A stretch of 28,113 nt of DNA, taken from positions 1 to 28,113 of IMG/VR virus record IMGVR_UViG_3300048828_000145, one strand, 5' to 3'. The stretch's first letter is position 1; the number at the start of each line of letters is the position of its first letter. The notes beneath the pieces were generated by a model. The model was not told the DNA's origin and did not search any database. It saw only the letters and a list, made by a program, of their open reading frames with translations. The position numbers and the translations under genes are program-made. The stretch comes from a virus (taxonomy: Duplodnaviria; Caudoviricetes). Positions 2,278 to 27,172 of this stretch are shown here, in pieces.

Positions 2278-2741
2278 CCAGTGAAAACGTCATAAAAGTC
2301 AGCTTTGAGCCGCAGCAAGATCCTATGGTGGAAATGTTCGCCGTTTTGCCGGAGAACCTTCCATCGGTTATAGATGACGCGCGGCGCTTTATAGCCATGT
2401 CCACCGCGCGCCAGGACAATGTAAACGCCGATCACATCATACAAGACCTCTATGATGGCATGTCCCTTCTCTGGATGGTTTACGTCGACGGCACCCCAAT
2501 GGCGTCCGTCGTCACTTGCATTCTGCACCACCCGCTGCGGCGCAATATGAAGATTGAGTGGATGGGCGGGGAGGACATGCACCTCTGGGCCGGCGAGGCT
2601 CTGGCCACTTTGACAAAAATAGCGAAAGAAGCTAAAATGGACGCGATTGAGACTGACGGTCGCAAGGGGTTTGCGAAATACGCAGAAGCGGCTTCCTTTC
2701 GTGAAACGCGCAGGCATTATGAGATGGAGCTGAGCCAATGA
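2274..2741 (+). CDS. GNAT-fold acetyltransferase-like protein
   Basis: 155 aa, translationally coupled; IETDGRKGF motif; usual podovirus position before ejection proteins. Confidence 0.5.
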   Translation: MTSENVIKVSFEPQQDPMVEMFAVLPENLPSVIDDARRFIAMSTARQDNVNADHIIQDLYDGMSLLWMVYVDGTPMASVVTCILHHPLRRNMKIEWMGGEDMHLWAGEALATLTKIAKEAKMDAIETDGRKGFAKYAEAASFRETRRHYEMELSQ

Positions 2742-4582
2742 GTTCAACTAAGACGCAAGAAACTAAGCTGCCTGAGTGGCAAGAAGACTTCATCCGCGAG
2801 CAGATCCTGCCGCGCGGCGTTGAAATCGCCGAAACTGAATACACCCCATACGAAGGCGATCTGATCGCCGGCATGACGCCACTGCAAGAGCAGGCGCTGT
2901 CCGGCTTTGGCAGCTTAGACACGGGTGGGGAAACTTACGAAAAAGCGATTGGCGTCCAGCAGGGGCTCTCCAGCTTCGCCCCGGCCGCCATGTCCGCCGC
3001 CACAGCCGTCCCGGCCTCCACATACGGCGGAGCAACTGTTGCTGACACTCCGTCATACGGCGGAGCAACTGTTGCTGACACTCCGTCATACGGCGGAGCA
3101 ACTGTTGCTGACACTCCGTCATACGGCGGAGCAACTGTTGCTGACACCGCGGCATACGGCGGAGCAACCGTTGCGGACACAGCCGCATACGGCGGCGCAA
3201 CGATCAGCCCGATAGAGCGCGCCAGAGCCGCTCAGCTTGGCGAAGTTGAGCGAATGCAGGGCGTCGGCGCTGTTCGATCTGCGCGCGCACCAGGGCAGAT
3301 CGGGGTCGACACGCTGGCGAGGACAGACCTCGATCCGTATTTGTCGCCATACACTCAGAACGTGATTGAGCTTGGCCAGCAGGACATCGAGCGTCAGCGT
3401 CAGATGGCGTCTAACACGCTCGCCGCACAGGCGGAAGCTGCCGGCGCCTTTGGCGGATCGCGTCAGGCTGTTCAGGAAGGTGTCTTGGCAGGAGAGGCTG
3501 TACGCCAAGCCGGAGCTCTGTCCGCTCAGCAGAGGCAGCAGGCGTTTACGCAGGCACTCCAGTCTGGTCAGTTTGACATTGGCAACGTGCAGCAGGCTCG
3601 TGCATTGCAGTCGGGTCAGCAAATGACCGCTGAGACACTTGGCCAGCAGGCAAGAGAAGCTGCCGCAAACCGCGATCAGGCGGCACGCGCCGGCAACATG
3701 GCGGCGGCAAACCAGTTCGCTCAGCAGCAAGCACAGCTCGAGCAGCAAGCGACGCTGGCTAATCAGGCAGCGTTCAACGCAAGGGCGAAAGCCCAGGCGC
3801 AACTTACTCAGCAAGCTGGACTAGCAGCGGCCCAACAGGCTGCGGCACGCGCATCGCAGCAGGCTGGGCTGACGCAAGCCGCTGGACTAACAGCGGCCCA
3901 GCAGGCTGCGGCACGCGCATCGCAGCAGGCTGGGTTGACGCAAGCCGCTGGACTAACAGCGGCCCAACAGGCTGCGGCACGCGCATCACAGCAGGCTGGG
4001 TTGACGCAAGCCGCTGGACTAACAGCGGCCCAACAGGATGCGGCACGCGCATCGCAGCAGGCTGGGTTGACGCAAGCCGCTGGACTAACAGCGGCCCAAC
4101 AGGATGCGGCACGCGCATCACAGCAGGCTGGGTTGACGCAAGCCGCTGGCTTATCCAATCAGGCCGCTCTAAATCAAGCGATACAGGCAGAGGCGGCGCG
4201 CCAGCAGGCGGCAAACGTAGCCAACTTCCAAGGCCAGTTTCAGGCCGCTGGCATTCAGTCCGGCGCTGCCAACGCAATGGCCGGCCTGGCGGGGCAGCAA
4301 TTGCAATCGGAGCTCGCTGGCCTCGGCGCGCAGATGTCTGCCGGAGAGCAGGAGCGCGCCCTGGAGCAAGCTCAATTGCAGGCTGATTACGCGATGTTCC
4401 AAGAGCAGCAGGCGTATCCACTTTCGCAGCTTAACGCGCTTCTGGCCGCGGGATCCGGCATCCCGGCGGGTCTCGGGACCACTACAACCCGCGATCCGTT
4501 TGGCGGGTTGTCGGCGTTTGGAAGCCTCTTGGGCGGAGTGGGCGCTGTCGGTAGAGGCGGCGGCTTTGGCGCTCTTTTTTAG
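2738..4582 (+). CDS. Internal virion / DNA ejection (pilot) protein with tandem repeats
   Basis: Ala/Gln/Gly-rich 614 aa; YLSPYTQNVI and AGAFGGSRQAV motifs; Gly-rich hydrophobic C-terminus; synteny. Confidence 0.7.
   Translation: MSSTKTQETKLPEWQEDFIREQILPRGVEIAETEYTPYEGDLIAGMTPLQEQALSGFGSLDTGGETYEKAIGVQQGLSSFAPAAMSAATAVPASTYGGATVADTPSYGGATVADTPSYGGATVADTPSYGGATVADTAAYGGATVADTAAYGGATISPIERARAAQLGEVERMQGVGAVRSARAPGQIGVDTLARTDLDPYLSPYTQNVIELGQQDIERQRQMASNTLAAQAEAAGAFGGSRQAVQEGVLAGEAVRQAGALSAQQRQQAFTQALQSGQFDIGNVQQARALQSGQQMTAETLGQQAREAAANRDQAARAGNMAAANQFAQQQAQLEQQATLANQAAFNARAKAQAQLTQQAGLAAAQQAAARASQQAGLTQAAGLTAAQQAAARASQQAGLTQAAGLTAAQQAAARASQQAGLTQAAGLTAAQQDAARASQQAGLTQAAGLTAAQQDAARASQQAGLTQAAGLSNQAALNQAIQAEAARQQAANVANFQGQFQAAGIQSGAANAMAGLAGQQLQSELAGLGAQMSAGEQERALEQAQLQADYAMFQEQQAYPLSQLNALLAAGSGIPAGLGTTTTRDPFGGLSAFGSLLGGVGAVGRGGGFGALF
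3023..3202 (+). repeat. In-frame 33-bp tandem repeat (YGGATVADTPS/AA), 5 full copies plus 1 partial
   Basis: Units start at 3023, 3056, 3089, 3122, 3155, 3188. Confidence 0.95.
3815..4150 (+). repeat. In-frame 66-bp tandem repeat (AGLTAAQQ[A/D]AARASQQAGLTQA), 5 copies
   Basis: Units start at 3815, 3881, 3947, 4013, 4079. Confidence 0.95.
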
Positions 4583-20430: not shown

Positions 20431-21852
20431 ATGAACGCCCCCAGCCCCCAAGATAACCCGTTTCTGAAGTTGATGCGCCGCTACCGCGATGATCCGGTGC
20501 GCTTCTCCCAGGAGGTCATTGGCATCGAGCCCGACGAGTGGCAGGTTGAGCTGTTGGACGCGATCGCCGCCCCAGCGGTGCGCCGCGTATCCGTCAGATC
20601 TGGCCACGGCGTCGGCAAGTCCACGGGCGTCGCCATGGCGGCCATCTGGCACGTCTTGATGCGGTATCCGAGCAAGACGGTGGTCACGGCCCCCACGTCC
20701 GCGCAGCTGTTTGACGCGTGTTTCGCGGAGATGAAGAACGTGGCCAAGCGGCTGAAGCCGCCGTTCAACAATTTGCTGGAGATCAAGTCGGATCGGATCG
20801 AGCTCAAGAGCGCGCCCGAGAGCACGTTTATTTCGTGTCGGACGTCGAGGTCGGAGCAGCCGGAAGCCTTGGCTGGGGTTCACAGCGAGAACGTGTTGCT
20901 GCTGGCGGATGAGGCCAGCGGTATCCCGGAGGCCGTTTTTGAGGCTGCCTCGGGCTCGATGTCCGGCCACAGCGCCACGACGGTGCTGACGGGCAACCCG
21001 ACGCGTAATACTGGCTTCTTTTACGACACCCACACGCGGCTGCGGGATGACTGGTACACGATGCACGTCTCCTGCGTTGATAGCCCGCGCGTGTCCGAGG
21101 ATTTCGTCAAGGACATGGAGCGCCGGTACGGTGAGGACAGCCCGGCGTTTCATGTTCGCGTCTTGGGCAACTTTCCGCCGTCTGAGGAGGACACGGTGAT
21201 CCCGGTCGCGTTGGTTGAGCACGCGTTTAACAACGAGGTGAAGGTGCACGAGGACACGGCGGGCGTCTGGGGCTTAGATGTGGCGCGTCAGGGGGATGAC
21301 AGCAGCGTGCTGTGCAAGCGCCAGGGGCCGGTGGTGCACCCGCTGACTGTGTGGCGCAACTTGGACCTGATGCAGCTGTCCGGCGCTGTGAAGGCGGAAT
21401 ACGATGCGGCGCCCCCGTCAAAGCGCCCCGTTGAGATCATCGTCGACAGCAACGGCTTTGGCGCCGGGGTGTTGGATCGTTTGCGGGAGTTGGGGTTGCC
21501 GGCGCGTGGCTTGAACGTGTCTGAGCGCGCTATGGCGAAGCAGACGTATTTGAACCTGCGCGCGGAGCTGTGGTTCAAGTGCAAGGCGTGGCTTGAGAAT
21601 ATGGATGTGTCGCTGCCCAAGGATGACGCGCTGTATTCGGAGCTTGTGGCGCCGCGTTACATGTTTACGTCGTCTGGCAAGATCCAGGTTGAGAGCAAGG
21701 ACAGCATGAAAAAGCGCGGCGTGCGATCTCCCGACCGCGCCGACGCGCTGTGCTTAGCTTTGGCCAATGACCACACGACCATGGCCTACGGGACGTCGGC
21801 CAGCGGCTCCTGGGGGAAGCCGCTGAAGCGTGGTATTCGCGGGGTGGTTTAG
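20431..21852 (+). CDS. terL: Terminase large subunit
   Basis: RSGHGVGKS Walker A; LLADEASG Walker B; GNPTR; GLDVARQGDD and SPDRADA nuclease motifs. Confidence 0.95.
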   Translation: MNAPSPQDNPFLKLMRRYRDDPVRFSQEVIGIEPDEWQVELLDAIAAPAVRRVSVRSGHGVGKSTGVAMAAIWHVLMRYPSKTVVTAPTSAQLFDACFAEMKNVAKRLKPPFNNLLEIKSDRIELKSAPESTFISCRTSRSEQPEALAGVHSENVLLLADEASGIPEAVFEAASGSMSGHSATTVLTGNPTRNTGFFYDTHTRLRDDWYTMHVSCVDSPRVSEDFVKDMERRYGEDSPAFHVRVLGNFPPSEEDTVIPVALVEHAFNNEVKVHEDTAGVWGLDVARQGDDSSVLCKRQGPVVHPLTVWRNLDLMQLSGAVKAEYDAAPPSKRPVEIIVDSNGFGAGVLDRLRELGLPARGLNVSERAMAKQTYLNLRAELWFKCKAWLENMDVSLPKDDALYSELVAPRYMFTSSGKIQVESKDSMKKRGVRSPDRADALCLALANDHTTMAYGTSASGSWGKPLKRGIRGVV

Positions 21853-22469
21853 GCGTTCTCGACCTGATCGACGAGCATCTGGCCATTTTCGACCCACTGC
21901 TCGAGAGTGAGGTCTTTGAGGCGCGGTTGGTCGACGTCGAGAAATGCGACGACTTGGTCTTTAATCCTGCCGGTGGCCATGTAGTGGAGTGTCAGGTTTG
22001 TGCCTGGCTCCTTGAGGTATACGAAACGCCACGCCACTTTCATGTATGCCGGCGCCGACTTTGGCGGGTTTTCGTTCTTGACCCTCATCATTTCGAGGTT
22101 TGGGCACCCGATTGCGTCGAGTATGAGGTCGCGCGTCAGGCGCTTTGGCTTGGGCATGTATTTCGCCTTTGCGGTCTCCCACTCTTGTAGGCTTACGTTC
22201 AACTCCCGCGCCTCGCTCGAAAACGGCGTCTCTGACGGCGATATAGCGTTAATGACGTCTGACAAGTCTCTGCGCGTCTGGCGCTCTTGCTCGATCCGCG
22301 CCGCGACGTTTCGCTTGGCCTCTTGGACCTCCGCATAGTTGAGCTCCTGCGCCAGCCCCTTGGCGAGCTCAAGCGCCTCCGCCGACTTCTGCTCGGTGTT
22401 GGCGGTGATTGCGAGGTACAGGCCCAGCTCGACGGCTTCCTGCGTGTTTTGTGGTGTGTTGTTGTGCAT
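21849..22469 (-). CDS. Mosaic accessory protein containing a capsid-like segment
   Basis: GGGAG RBS favours start at 22469; internal RRDLSDVINAISPSETPFSS...QEWET. Confidence 0.7.
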   Translation of the reverse strand: MHNNTPQNTQEAVELGLYLAITANTEQKSAEALELAKGLAQELNYAEVQEAKRNVAARIEQERQTRRDLSDVINAISPSETPFSSEARELNVSLQEWETAKAKYMPKPKRLTRDLILDAIGCPNLEMMRVKNENPPKSAPAYMKVAWRFVYLKEPGTNLTLHYMATGRIKDQVVAFLDVDQPRLKDLTLEQWVENGQMLVDQVENA

Positions 22470-22513
22470 TTTCATTCTCCCGGTTGTGGGGAGCCGGAGC
22501 TCCCCGTGTTGTG

Positions 22514-22774
22514 TTAAACAATGTCGCACGGCTTGTGCAGCTCACCATTGTGCATCACGCGGCGGATCGCGGCGGAGGCGTTACCCATTGACTTGACCCA
22601 TGCGTGGGCAAGGTCGCCAGCGTGACCGAGGTCGTCAGCGTCAAGCTCAACGAAACGATCAGCAACATTCATGTCGCTGGATGTTTCAACATGGACAACA
22701 AACGCTGGCTTGCGATCGACCATGCGACCTTGAGCAGCCTCGGATGAAAGCAGAAAAGAAAGAGAATGTGCCAT
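22514..22774 (-). CDS. Hypothetical early protein (86 aa)
   Basis: GGAGG RBS before ATG 22774; downstream of a promoter. Confidence 0.7.
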   Translation of the reverse strand: MAHSLSFLLSSEAAQGRMVDRKPAFVVHVETSSDMNVADRFVELDADDLGHAGDLAHAWVKSMGNASAAIRRVMHNGELHKPCDIV

Positions 22775-22824
22775 AGGAACCTCCATATCGGCGTGCGTTG
22801 GCGGGATTGCCTCGGCTATATCAG

Positions 22825-22855
22825 TTAAACTAATGTTAACATCTACAGACTACAA
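22825..22855 (-). promoter_or_regulatory. Putative sigma70 promoter overlapped by a full CtrA box
   Basis: Minus strand TTGTAG-17 bp-TAGTTT; TTAA-ACTAATG-TTAAC at 22825-22840. Confidence 0.6.
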
Positions 22856-22909
22856 CCCCTAAAATGCAAAAAACTGGCCTCCGGCAAACTTTTTTGTTAT
22901 CCTGCGCCT

Positions 22910-22990
22910 GTTAGCGGCTACCCTCCCACCCAGCCGTTGAGCTTTCTGGCTCCCCCGCGCGCTTGGTTCTTCCCCCAGGTGCGCGGGGTT
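22910..22990 (+). ncRNA. Candidate two-hairpin small RNA with CU-rich loops
   Basis: Hairpins 22911-22940 and 22953-22988; extended -10 TGtTATCCT at 22895-22903. Confidence 0.4.
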
Positions 22991-23017
22991 ACACTGAAGG
23001 CGGGTTTGGTGTATTAT
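22989..23017 (+). promoter_or_regulatory. Putative promoter for the 23073 gene
   Basis: TTACAC-17 bp-TATTAT. Confidence 0.4.
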
Positions 23018-23072
23018 TGTGGGAAGAGGGCTTAAATAAGCGCATGTGCGCAAATAACATCGGGGGCATCAC

Positions 23073-23615
23073 ATGCCGGGCAGTGACTTTAGAAACTTAA
23101 TGGCGCAGAGCGAGAGCAGCGGCAACTACGGCATCCTGACCGACGCCGGCGGCGGCGACATGGTTGCAGGCGCGTACCAGTTCGGCGACCCACGCCTAAA
23201 AGATTTCATGGATGACACGGGCGAGAAGTTCACCCGCGAAGACTTCCTCGCCAGCCCGGAGCTACAAGAGCGCGTCATGAACTGGCACGAGCAGGACGTC
23301 GTGGACTACGCCATGGAGAATGGCTTGGACCGCTTCTTCGGCCAGGAGATCAAGGGCGTCCCGGTGGATATGTCGGCAGTCGTCGGCATGGCCCACCTCG
23401 GCGGCCGTAAGGGGATGCGCGACTTCCTCGAGAGCGGCGGAGAGTTGGACAAGAAGGACAAGTTCGGCACGTTTATTTCGGATTACGGCAGGAAGTTTTC
23501 CGGCCAGAGCCTGTACAGCGAGACGCCACCCCGCCCGCGTATGCGCCCGCAGGGTTTACTGCCGCCTGAGACGTCACCGCGGCCAGTGGCTCGTCCGCAG
23601 GGTTTACTCGGCTAA
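23073..23615 (+). CDS. Lysozyme-like / lytic transglycosylase-fold protein
   Basis: AQSESSGNY (catalytic ES), GAYQF, FLASPELQE, AHLGG; Pro/Arg-rich tail. Confidence 0.7.
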   Translation: MPGSDFRNLMAQSESSGNYGILTDAGGGDMVAGAYQFGDPRLKDFMDDTGEKFTREDFLASPELQERVMNWHEQDVVDYAMENGLDRFFGQEIKGVPVDMSAVVGMAHLGGRKGMRDFLESGGELDKKDKFGTFISDYGRKFSGQSLYSETPPRPRMRPQGLLPPETSPRPVARPQGLLG

Positions 23616-24943
23616 TGGCAGGTTACGAGCAATACGTCCCGCCGGGACTACGCGGCCCGCTCAGAGACCTATTCGGCATGGCCCGCGTGACAGGCGAGGG
23701 CGGCGCCGGCATCCTGCGCGCAGTCCAAGAGGATCCGCTGGCAGTCAACAAGGCGATCGGCGAGAGTATGATCGGCGGCATCCAGTCTATGGCCACCGAC
23801 CCAGTCGGCACCGTGCGGGGCGTCGTCAGCGACGCCGCCGGCACCGTCCAGCGCGCGCTGACGAATACGGCGGTGGACTACCTGCCGGAGGGCGTGACGC
23901 TCTCCACCGCGACGCCCGAGCAACTCAAGATGGCCAACGACGCGCGGTACGCTGACCTGGCGTCAACCGCTGCTATGGCAGTCCCCGGAGCTAAGGCATT
24001 GAGAACAGGCGCAAAAGCGGCAGCGTCTTCTCTGGGCGCAAGGTCTCTGGGAAATCAGGCCGCGTCTGCATACATGATCGGGCAGAAGCTCCAAGACGTC
24101 GAAGGCTACAAGGGCGCGATTGGTAAGCCCAGTAAAGTCAAAATGCCTTCTGGGGAGAGTTACGACGCCCGCCCTGTGAGCCAGATCGAAGAGGCCGCAA
24201 AGTCTTACATGAAAGCTCAGAACATGGATGTTTCTGGGTTTTCCGAGTATCCCGCCTTCAGCGAAGAGCGCGCAAGGCTGATCGCAGCTGCTTATGACAT
24301 GATGCAGCACGACCCCACTGGTCCTGCCGTCAAGCGAGCATATGACGCCATGATCGAAGAGACGATGGGTCAGTACAAGGCGCTAAAAGACGCCGGTGTT
24401 GAGTTTAAGTTCCTGAAGGAAGGTATGGATGACCCTTACGCGGCATCTCCGGCGATGGGCTATCAGGACATCGTTGAGAACGGCAAATTGTGGGTTTATC
24501 CAACTGACTTCGGGTTCGGCACGAACACATCTTTTGATGCGGCTGAAAACCCACTGCTAAAAGGCGTCGGCAGGGTCGGCGATAAGAGCGACGCCGTAGC
24601 CAATGACGCTTTCAGAGCCGTGCACGATGCTTTCGGGCATTTTGGCTCCGGCAATCCGTTCTTTAGGCGTCAAGGCGAGGAGCGGGCTTTTCTGGAGCAC
24701 TCTCGGATGTATTCGCCTGACGCCATAGGCGCCATGACGTCTGAAACTAGAGGTCAGAATAGCTGGCTTAACTCGGGCCCGTTTGGAATGTCTAATAGAA
24801 CTGCAAACACCTCTGACACTGTCTTTGCCGATCAAAAGTCTGGACTTATGCCGTCTTGGACTAGCGATCCGCTTGGTATGCCAGATCCAGATGAAACCAA
24901 GTCACTTCTAAGGTACATCGAGAACCAAAAATGGCAAAAATAG
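23615..24943 (+). CDS. Large hypothetical protein with putative zincin-like C-terminal domain
   Basis: TAATG coupling; FRAVHDAFGH...GEERAF...SETRGQNSW. Confidence 0.6.
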   Translation: MAGYEQYVPPGLRGPLRDLFGMARVTGEGGAGILRAVQEDPLAVNKAIGESMIGGIQSMATDPVGTVRGVVSDAAGTVQRALTNTAVDYLPEGVTLSTATPEQLKMANDARYADLASTAAMAVPGAKALRTGAKAAASSLGARSLGNQAASAYMIGQKLQDVEGYKGAIGKPSKVKMPSGESYDARPVSQIEEAAKSYMKAQNMDVSGFSEYPAFSEERARLIAAAYDMMQHDPTGPAVKRAYDAMIEETMGQYKALKDAGVEFKFLKEGMDDPYAASPAMGYQDIVENGKLWVYPTDFGFGTNTSFDAAENPLLKGVGRVGDKSDAVANDAFRAVHDAFGHFGSGNPFFRRQGEERAFLEHSRMYSPDAIGAMTSETRGQNSWLNSGPFGMSNRTANTSDTVFADQKSGLMPSWTSDPLGMPDPDETKSLLRYIENQKWQK

Positions 24944-25059
24944 CGGGTGGCCTGGGTCACAGGCCGACAGCAAATCTGGCAGACCTAGAAGACGAGTTGG
25001 AGCGTAAGGCGCAACAAGATGCGCGCGAGTTTGAGAAGGCGAAAAAAGATGGACTATGA
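24931..25059 (+). CDS. Small charged protein (42 aa, not in ORF track)
   Basis: MAKIAGGLGHRPTANLADLEDELERKAQQDAREFEKAKKDGL; bridges the 23615 gene and the portal; weak RBS. Confidence 0.35.
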   Translation: MAKIAGGLGHRPTANLADLEDELERKAQQDAREFEKAKKDGL

Positions 25060-27172
25060 GATAAACGAAATGGCCTCCGAGCTCGAGGCTGAACTGAACC
25101 CGGACGTCATGGACGATCAGGAGCTGCAAGGCATCGTCGGCAACGAGATCGACGACGCTATAGACTTCATCGACAACTGGATCTCCCCGATCCGCGCCAC
25201 GGCGACGCAATACTACCGGGGCGAGCCGTTTGGCGACGAGGAAGAGGGCCGCAGCCAAGTTGTCAGCATGGACGTGCGGGATACCGTACAGGCGATCATG
25301 CCGTCCCTCATGCGCATCTTTAACGGATCCGACCGCACCGTCGAATACGTCCCGCAAAACGCGGAGGACGTGCCGGCGGCAAAGCAGGCCACCGAGTACG
25401 CCAACTTCATCATCAATCGCGACAACCGCGGCTTCCTGGAGATGCACAGCGCATTCATGGACGCGCTGGTGCGCAAGGTCGGCATCCTCAAGTGTTACTG
25501 GGAAGACAAGACCGAGTTTGACACAATCGAGTACACCGGCATCGACGACACCGCCCTGGCGGCACTCATGGCTGACCCAGCCGCCGAGGTTGACATTACC
25601 GTGAGCACGCCGGTCGGCGAGCCGCAGATCGACCCTACGACTGGCCAGATCATCATGCCTCCCATGTCACACGACCTGCGCGTCACCTACACCCGGCCAG
25701 ACGGACGCGTGAAGGTGGAGGCTCTACCGCCGGAGGAGTTCCTGATCTCCCGCGAGGCTAAATCCGTCGAGGAAGCCGAATACGTTGCGCATCGCCGCAT
25801 CGTGACCGTGTCGGAGCTTGTAGCTATGGGCTACGATTACGACGAGGTCTACAACCTGTCATCGACCCACGACGACATGGACACCAACGTCGAGCGCAAC
25901 ACGCGCAACCCGGCATTATCAAACGACATGAATTCGCGCCAAGACCCGGCGATGCGTAAGGTTCTATACGTTGAGAACTACATCCGCGTAGACTACGACG
26001 GTGACGGCATCGCCGAGCTGCGCAAGATCTGCACCGGTGGAGATGGCAACGTCATTCTCAACAACGAGCCGTGCGACATGGCGCCCTTCGCCACACTATG
26101 CCCAGACCCCGAGCCGCACGACTTTTTCGGCATGTCCGTCGCCGACACCGTGATGGACATCCAACGCATCAAGTCAGTCGTCATGCGCAACTCGCTGGAC
26201 AGCCTAAGCCTCAGTATTCACCCGAGAATTGCTGTTGTCGAAGGCATGGTGAACATGGACGATGCTATGAATGTAGAGGTCGGATCAATCGTCCGTCAGC
26301 GCGCTCCGGGCTCGATCCAGCAGCTCACCGTGCCGTTTGTCGGCCAGCAGGCATTCCCGGTCCTGAACTACATGGACGAGGTCAAGGAGGCTCGCACAGG
26401 CATCTCCAAGGCGTCCATGGGTTTAGACGCCGGCGCCCTACAGTCGAGCACCGCAACCGCCGTGGCAGCCACTGTGAGCGCCGCACAGCAGCACATTGAG
26501 ATGATTGCCAGGGTATTCGCTGAAACCGGCGTTAAGCGCCTGTACGAGCTTGTCCTGTACAACATCACCACGCACCAGGACAAGGCGCGGATGATCCGCT
26601 TGAACAACGACTTCGTCGAAATGGACCCACGGGTCTGGAACGCGAATATGGATGTCTCTGTCAACGTAGCCCTGGGCCGCGGGACTGACACTGAGCGGAT
26701 GATGATGCTGCGCCAGATCGGCGAGATGCAGAAGGAAGCCATGTCGACTATGGGGCCGCAGAACCCGCTGACCGACATCTCCAAGCTGAGCAACACGCTC
26801 AAGGAGATGACGTCGCTGGCCGGCTTCAAGGACACGTCGCAGTTCTGGAGTGATCCTGCGAAGTTCCAGCCGCCACCATCAGACAACAAGCCAGACATCA
26901 ACGAGCAGCTGATCCAGGTGCAGATCCAGCAGATACAGGCGGACATGCAGAAGAAGGCGGCAGACCTTCAGCTGAAGCGCGAGCAGATGATGATGGAAGA
27001 CGACCGCAAGCGCGACGAGCTCGAGGCCGACATCCGCGTCAAGGCGGAGGAGCTGAAGGCGAAGTACGGCACGCAGCTTGACGTCGCCCAGATCCGGGCC
27101 GACATGGCGATCAACCGCGAAGTGATGAAGGCGCAGGCCGACATAATCACGGAGGCGACGCGTGAAGACTAA
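25049..27172 (+). CDS. Portal protein (P22/SU10-like)
   Basis: YYRGEPFGDEEEGRSQVVSMDVRD; PHDFFGMS; C-terminal coiled-coil barrel; start at 25049 preferred. Confidence 0.9.
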   Translation: MDYEINEMASELEAELNPDVMDDQELQGIVGNEIDDAIDFIDNWISPIRATATQYYRGEPFGDEEEGRSQVVSMDVRDTVQAIMPSLMRIFNGSDRTVEYVPQNAEDVPAAKQATEYANFIINRDNRGFLEMHSAFMDALVRKVGILKCYWEDKTEFDTIEYTGIDDTALAALMADPAAEVDITVSTPVGEPQIDPTTGQIIMPPMSHDLRVTYTRPDGRVKVEALPPEEFLISREAKSVEEAEYVAHRRIVTVSELVAMGYDYDEVYNLSSTHDDMDTNVERNTRNPALSNDMNSRQDPAMRKVLYVENYIRVDYDGDGIAELRKICTGGDGNVILNNEPCDMAPFATLCPDPEPHDFFGMSVADTVMDIQRIKSVVMRNSLDSLSLSIHPRIAVVEGMVNMDDAMNVEVGSIVRQRAPGSIQQLTVPFVGQQAFPVLNYMDEVKEARTGISKASMGLDAGALQSSTATAVAATVSAAQQHIEMIARVFAETGVKRLYELVLYNITTHQDKARMIRLNNDFVEMDPRVWNANMDVSVNVALGRGTDTERMMMLRQIGEMQKEAMSTMGPQNPLTDISKLSNTLKEMTSLAGFKDTSQFWSDPAKFQPPPSDNKPDINEQLIQVQIQQIQADMQKKAADLQLKREQMMMEDDRKRDELEADIRVKAEELKAKYGTQLDVAQIRADMAINREVMKAQADIITEATRED

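Follow-up and report, generated by a model that had tools for sequence, protein, structure and literature searches.

The accessory protein P0001 appears, from sequence comparison, to carry a real, widespread and selected module of capsid origin. This 34-residue module (M; 22173..22274, minus strand; residues 66-99 of P0001) reads as it had been given in the preliminary description, and its homology to the N-terminal arm of SU10-type major capsid proteins (MCPs), at MCP residues ~17-52, is well supported. Tentatively, we favour the explanation that M is a captured and selected MCP-arm motif that either decoys a host protein reading the corresponding motif of the capsid or competes for it.

The window, i.e. 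the whole 28,113-nucleotide stretch that was analysed, represents a linear 28-kb virus with a CheckV completeness of 76%, whose large terminase (terL; 20431..21852, plus strand) had its closest cultured match with a named host in phage phiM5 (52%). P0001 (21849..22469, minus strand) encodes a mosaic protein of 206 aa with the architecture A-M-B; its frame is open, a GGAG ribosome-binding site is located 8 nt 5' of the ATG, and its stop codon overlaps that of the convergent terL gene. It is the last gene of a variable cassette that sits on the opposite strand between terL and the structural genes and comprises an 86-aa ORF (22514..22774, minus strand), whose place in relatives is taken by other small genes, a GC-rich inverted repeat (22485..22508) just 5' of the P0001 ribosome-binding site, and P0001. 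The same arrangement was found in nearly all family loci that reached a neighbour, with the remaining small cassette genes differing (71 loci were compared, several of which were the same contig counted twice), whilst in another lineage (two loci) the gene was placed among replication-region genes. A similar GC-rich motif was present in 41 of the 71 family loci, with up to three per locus, and this recurring hairpin may therefore mark boundaries within the cassette or help genes to be exchanged. Gene context suggests that P0001 is expressed early; the separate promoter that had been proposed for it was not recovered, as a sigma-70 promoter scan gave no minus-strand site. In RNA sequencing runs, contigs of relatives were the only material obtained.

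The cassette region (21852-23070) was hypervariable even inside single samples, with many joints and loose ends, and in some relatives an HNH-related gene was inserted between the P0001 homologue and terL (L001 9244-9675; L002 10630-11061). A second polymorphic slot was seen 5' of the portal gene, where a 442-aa gene (23615-24943) had a constant N-terminus and unrelated C-terminal halves across relatives (417-589 aa). Elsewhere in the window, a 614-aa, Ala/Gln-rich protein (2738-4582) with two tandem peptide repeat sets (about 12 and 19 residues) probably functions in ejection or inside the virion.

The capsid type of the phage was fixed by its portal (25019..27172, plus strand), which matched PF23899 (E 7e-210) and is of the SU10 type, in agreement with what had been expected from this gene. 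The scaffold gene runs off the end of the record and the phage's own MCP lies beyond the contig end; the MCP used for comparison was therefore taken from a 96%-identical relative (L002). In relatives the true MCP follows the scaffold, as a full-length gene on the same strand as the portal and scaffold. P0001, on the opposite strand beside terL, is not itself an MCP.

The proposed likeness of M to the N-terminal region of SU10 (formerly DUF5309) MCPs was borne out by several searches. A profile of 32 M copies, when run against 1.84 billion proteins, gave 24 matches at E<=1e-3. Five of these belonged to the family; of the other 19, 17 were SU10 MCPs or fragments of them, in each case aligned over the N-terminal arm (best E 8.3e-6), one was a repeat artefact and one an unrelated carrier. 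In a second database, 95 matches consisted of 79 family members and 16 other proteins, all 16 of which carried PF17236. A tblastn search of 50,697 phage records returned 17 matches (E<=10, best E 0.04), and every one of these fell within an annotated capsid, head or DUF5309 gene. SU10_MCP was the sole Pfam family matched by the 32 copies (13 of the 32 at E<=0.1), and the top match of the M profile in the PDB was the MCP 9ny2_A (residues 17-51, E 0.009). Significance against SU10 MCPs was therefore reached with the 32-copy profile, whereas single copies stayed below the curated Pfam cut-off: E was 0.045 for the whole protein and 0.0066 for a 38-aa piece, and scores of 13.7-16.4 bits, covering positions 10-45 of the ~292-position PF17236 model only, compared with a cut-off of 24.1 bits. 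A profile-profile match between M and MCPs was not counted because four of its six MCPs had been picked through M.

M carries the MCP N-terminal-arm signature R-E-D-L...I..I-S-P..T-P-F...W, except that position 2 is not E. It shares with SU10-type MCPs (PF17236; PDB 9ny2 and 7z45; the phiM5 MCP) seven invariant residues (R, L, I, P, T, P and F), all of them within an 18-aa conserved core (22221..22274, minus strand; R..L...I...SP..TPF), and the downstream Trp. It differs from them in that only 34 of ~320 residues are present, fused to unrelated carriers and incapable of forming the HK97 fold, in that two to four residues are missing ahead of the Trp (two in the window's M, between the TPF motif and the Trp), and in that two acidic positions, which were invariant across 24 aligned MCPs, are relaxed.

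At the DNA level, a blastn search against cultured phages gave no match that could be the donor of M. One exact match to a degenerate pattern was considered as a donor and proved to be an ordinary MCP, and an additional pattern scan matched four contigs, all of them known family contigs. The capture was thus either old or made from an unsampled donor; convergent mimicry in place of capture is formally still conceivable. The unrelated carrier matched by the profile, P0095, is a 113-aa singleton on a 1.1-kb contig; its residues 54-83 hold a motif resembling M, in which the distance to the Trp is shortened in the same way, and it is possibly an independent carrier or an independent capture.

Homologues of the flanking domains were surveyed for the insert, as had been suggested. 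In a whole-protein search, M was found in 71 of 89 family proteins, as an internal segment or as a C-terminal tail. The 71 were distributed between the architectures A-M-B (37), A-B-M (16), A'-B-M (9), B-M (4), A'-B-M-B (2), A-M (2) and B-M-B (1), where some of the 89 proteins may be cut by contig ends. M therefore does lie between two domains in the window, as had been described, but it is not a one-off insertion; it appears to be a mobile capsid-like module that has been shuffled between carriers, most often in an internal or C-terminal position. The window's A-M-B form may derive from a B-M-B duplication through loss of the first B. As M occurs on A alone, on B alone, on A-B, on A'-B, between A and B and between two copies of B, it is unlikely to be part of the fold of any single carrier.

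Carrier domain A (22278..22469, minus strand), a predicted three-helix domain without a family match, is exchangeable with the unrelated domain A'. Carrier domain B (21858..22163, minus strand) is predicted to consist of a helix, a beta-sheet and a helix with a hypervariable middle, and at least four unrelated middle segments were observed within its constant ends. Foldseek found no PDB match for the fold of B, the best VIA Z was 5.6, and there was no Atlas match. Weak profile matches to B, with a similar predicted fold, were obtained for phrog_9154, phrog_23727 and the BFVD entries A0A6J5NMK3 and A0A0F6WD43; these are stand-alone, uncharacterised phage proteins of 56-91 aa, a length that cannot accommodate A, B and M at once. 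In AlphaFold2 models the last helix of the carrier continued through the first half of M, and confidence was low from SPxxTPF onward (pLDDT 45-72); packing of this motif against a carrier was predicted for neither of the two.

Conservation of M was concentrated in the residues that it shares with MCPs. Among 68 M segments, which were picked by position from the whole-protein search and in which R1 and L4 served as anchors and were not counted, S12 was present in 67 and P13, T16, P17 and F18 in all 68. These columns are also invariant in MCPs, and P, T, P and F are kept even in a distant SU10 protein. The two acidic positions of the MCPs were not kept, with position 2 occupied by R, L, S, I or K in 67 of 68 copies and position 15 by K in 20 of 68. 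All 10 shortened copies that lacked the Trp, their second half being missing, retained SPxxTPF. An insert peculiar to this genome and free of purifying selection, which would have counted against the earlier proposal, is accordingly contradicted by a module that is widespread and by a P-x-x-T-P-F motif that was invariant in 68 of 68 segments.

At the nucleotide level, pooled pairwise dN/dS for the M core was 0.42 (31 distinct cores; bootstrap 0.19-0.77), with 0.02 at the seven MCP-invariant columns versus 0.66 at the other 11. For comparison, values were 0.33-0.52 for carriers A and B, 0.06 for terL and 0.11 for the own-type MCP, so that M as a whole was no more constrained than its carriers and far less than a real MCP. 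The DNA set was assembled in part by means of SPxxTPF patterns and a filter for the motif, and its pairs are not independent of one another owing to recombination; the dN/dS contrast is therefore overstated, and the residue counts in the protein segments are less biased. Constraint on DNA or RNA was considered as a cause of the conservation and rejected, as the mean folding z was 0.2 on both strands and one of 31 copies was below -2 on each. In the alternative frames, three of five were stopped in 29-31 of the 31 copies and two were mostly open.

These data also bear on whether M is an old recombination relic that now serves as a generic structural or stabilizing tail (a helix extension and cap), with its capsid origin incidental. 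This explanation, to which we give a rather low probability, is in keeping with the dispensability of M (18 of 89 proteins lacked it), with the partial duplication or truncation of some copies, with an overall dN/dS equal to that of the carriers and with the location of the gene in a recombination hot spot where joints are frequent even in single samples. One Thr codon was identical in 34 of 34 copies, and part of the invariance may thus reflect recent shared ancestry. Against a relic, four of the invariant residues do vary synonymously at the codon level, the same residues are retained on unrelated carriers in both terminal and internal positions and coincide with MCP-invariant columns, and a stabilizing tail accords poorly with a motif not predicted to pack on either carrier. 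The purely neutral recombination scar that had been left open is disfavoured by the spread and conservation of M.

M did not follow the capsid of the phage that carries it. The M core of the window shared 14 of 18 residues with the MCP of Sinorhizobium phage phiM5 versus 10-11 of 18 with MCPs of its own clade (the four cultured MCPs in this comparison having been chosen through M). Thus, of the earlier proposal that a capsid fragment had been captured, the capsid origin is supported, but M is no copy of the own-clade capsid. In own-clade MCPs, T16 was kept in 50 of 71 and F18 in 58 of 71 (71 of 80 loci had a readable arm, which was located through downstream residues), whereas M varies at neither position. 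An M that does not track its own capsid and yet is invariant points to an external, conserved partner.

Within the TPF motif of the own-clade MCPs, V replaced T in 19 of 71 and L replaced F in 11 of 71 (e.g. L104, L105, L158 and L171; residues ~16-33), a variation that could represent escape from something that reads the motif. An inverse relationship between the presence of M and an altered own-capsid motif was also considered. Two complete genomes without M have V for T in their own-capsid motif, but the relationship was broken when the portal was used as a proxy for the own-capsid motif type: one M-carrying contig had a portal 99% identical to that of an altered-motif type, and one M-less contig a portal 100% identical to that of an intact-motif type.

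The mismatch between M and the own capsid weighs in different directions on two further explanations. It speaks against M being a tag that recruits its carrier into the phage's own procapsid via the own scaffold or MCP, as does the position of the gene, which is encoded antiparallel to the structural genes and in another lineage lies within the replication region. A tag would agree with the homology of M to the arm, which in HK97-fold phages is directed towards the inside of the procapsid (PMC9965877; PMC9958956), but we regard this explanation as improbable. By the same mismatch, M might be a dominant-negative assembly inhibitor of co-infecting SU10-type phages, which would block the docking site of the arm on the MCP or titrate scaffold whilst sparing the diverged capsid of its own phage. 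M keeps the MCP-invariant hydrophobic and SPxxTPF residues and is closer to the MCP of other phages than to its own. In phage P22, the N-arm of the coat protein binds the C-terminal helix-loop-helix of the scaffold (PMC9965877), and the scaffolds of the phages studied here end in an element that looks similar by eye. SaPI CpmB provides a precedent in which short mimicry of an assembly protein works (PMC12409344): like Rcm, it is small, has a short motif in common with a protein of morphogenesis, and competes at the capsid. The SaPI proteins differ from M in that satellites encode them and the scaffold is what they mimic; M is the product of a phage gene, and what it copies is the capsid protein itself.

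Other features make such inhibition an unlikely role, if a somewhat less unlikely one than that of a relic. The two MCP-invariant acidic residues are lost in M, whereas P22 scaffold binding uses acidic residues, and this loss argues against scaffold binding. Own-clade MCPs keep most of the motif, which implies a risk of self-poisoning, and no significant equivalence between M and P22 was detected by sequence alignment (P 0.09). When M was modelled in complex with the last 36 residues of the scaffold from a relative, the score was 0.02 against a mark of 0.32, which counts neither way.

A portable, selected and dispensable motif that does not follow its own capsid is most simply understood as a motif that binds an external partner, and the decoy that we favour gives this partner a place in host defence. 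P0001 would be made before capsid synthesis, with M displayed where a carrier helix ends and its SPxxTPF turn left accessible. M would then bind a defence sensor that reads the motif, by a logic like that of Lit/Gol or CapRel, or a host factor monitored by such a sensor, and would leave the sensor untriggered, so that later capsid synthesis would escape notice. As would be expected of an accessory decoy, the gene is non-essential and patchily distributed and the mimic motif is conserved; the patchiness of M (71 of 89) and the two complete genomes whose carrier lacks it fit an accessory gene in an arms race. On the other side, whether M is present does not depend on the own-capsid motif being intact or altered. 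One might also have expected a decoy to look like the capsid of its own phage; M is more like the capsids of others, which counts against this explanation.

The T4 Gol peptide, which we take to be residues 94-122 of gp23, was compared with M by hhalign and by a sliding profile over the Gol region, and no match was found. There are precedents for the proposed sensing. Lit and CapRel sense the MCP via short motifs (10.64898/2026.01.04.697583); EF-Tu is bound by Gol, a 29-residue peptide of T4 gp23 (PMC3014915), and CapRel binds the MCP directly. In T4 Gol/Lit and CapRel-SJ46, defence is triggered when a short piece of the capsid contacts a protein of the host, EF-Tu or CapRel. Gol differs from M in that it belongs to a real capsid protein and activates defence, whereas M is encoded apart from the capsid, by an accessory gene. 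Within gp23, Gol falls in the first quarter (PMC3014915), and the N-arm follows a 25-residue N-fist after residue 65 (PMC9958956); together, these positions suggest that the part of the HK97 fold to which M corresponds is probably also that of Gol. Avs7, Avs8 and Avs10 are described as recognizing the whole HK97 fold, and escape from Thoeris as mapping to the P-loop and E-loop; a peptide such as M would thus not decoy these systems.

A literature search, whose coverage excluded most subscription papers, found no published case of a phage-encoded capsid-fragment decoy (the sources used for comparison also included PMC12578639, PMC9712102, PMC13728456 and 10.1101/2024.04.22.590561). Mimicry of structural proteins is already known, and a phage-encoded, capsid-derived copy on accessory carriers would, judged from sequence, be a new variant of it. 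More speculatively, and with less confidence than for the decoy role of M itself, phages may recurrently capture capsid motifs that are read by immunity as portable decoy tags on early proteins, with M as the SU10 instance of such 'self-antigen decoys' and with an as yet undescribed host sensor for SPxxTPF.

Immune systems are commonly triggered by capsid proteins, which cannot easily be mutated. If the interpretation is true, a separately encoded and selected copy of the most conserved capsid motif would represent either a new way of evading sensing or a new weapon between phages. M marks an 18-residue epitope as bait, and could be used to identify a host protein that reads the capsid; as bait, it also bears on whether the arm of the HK97 fold generally binds a host factor, as has been proposed for T4 Gol.
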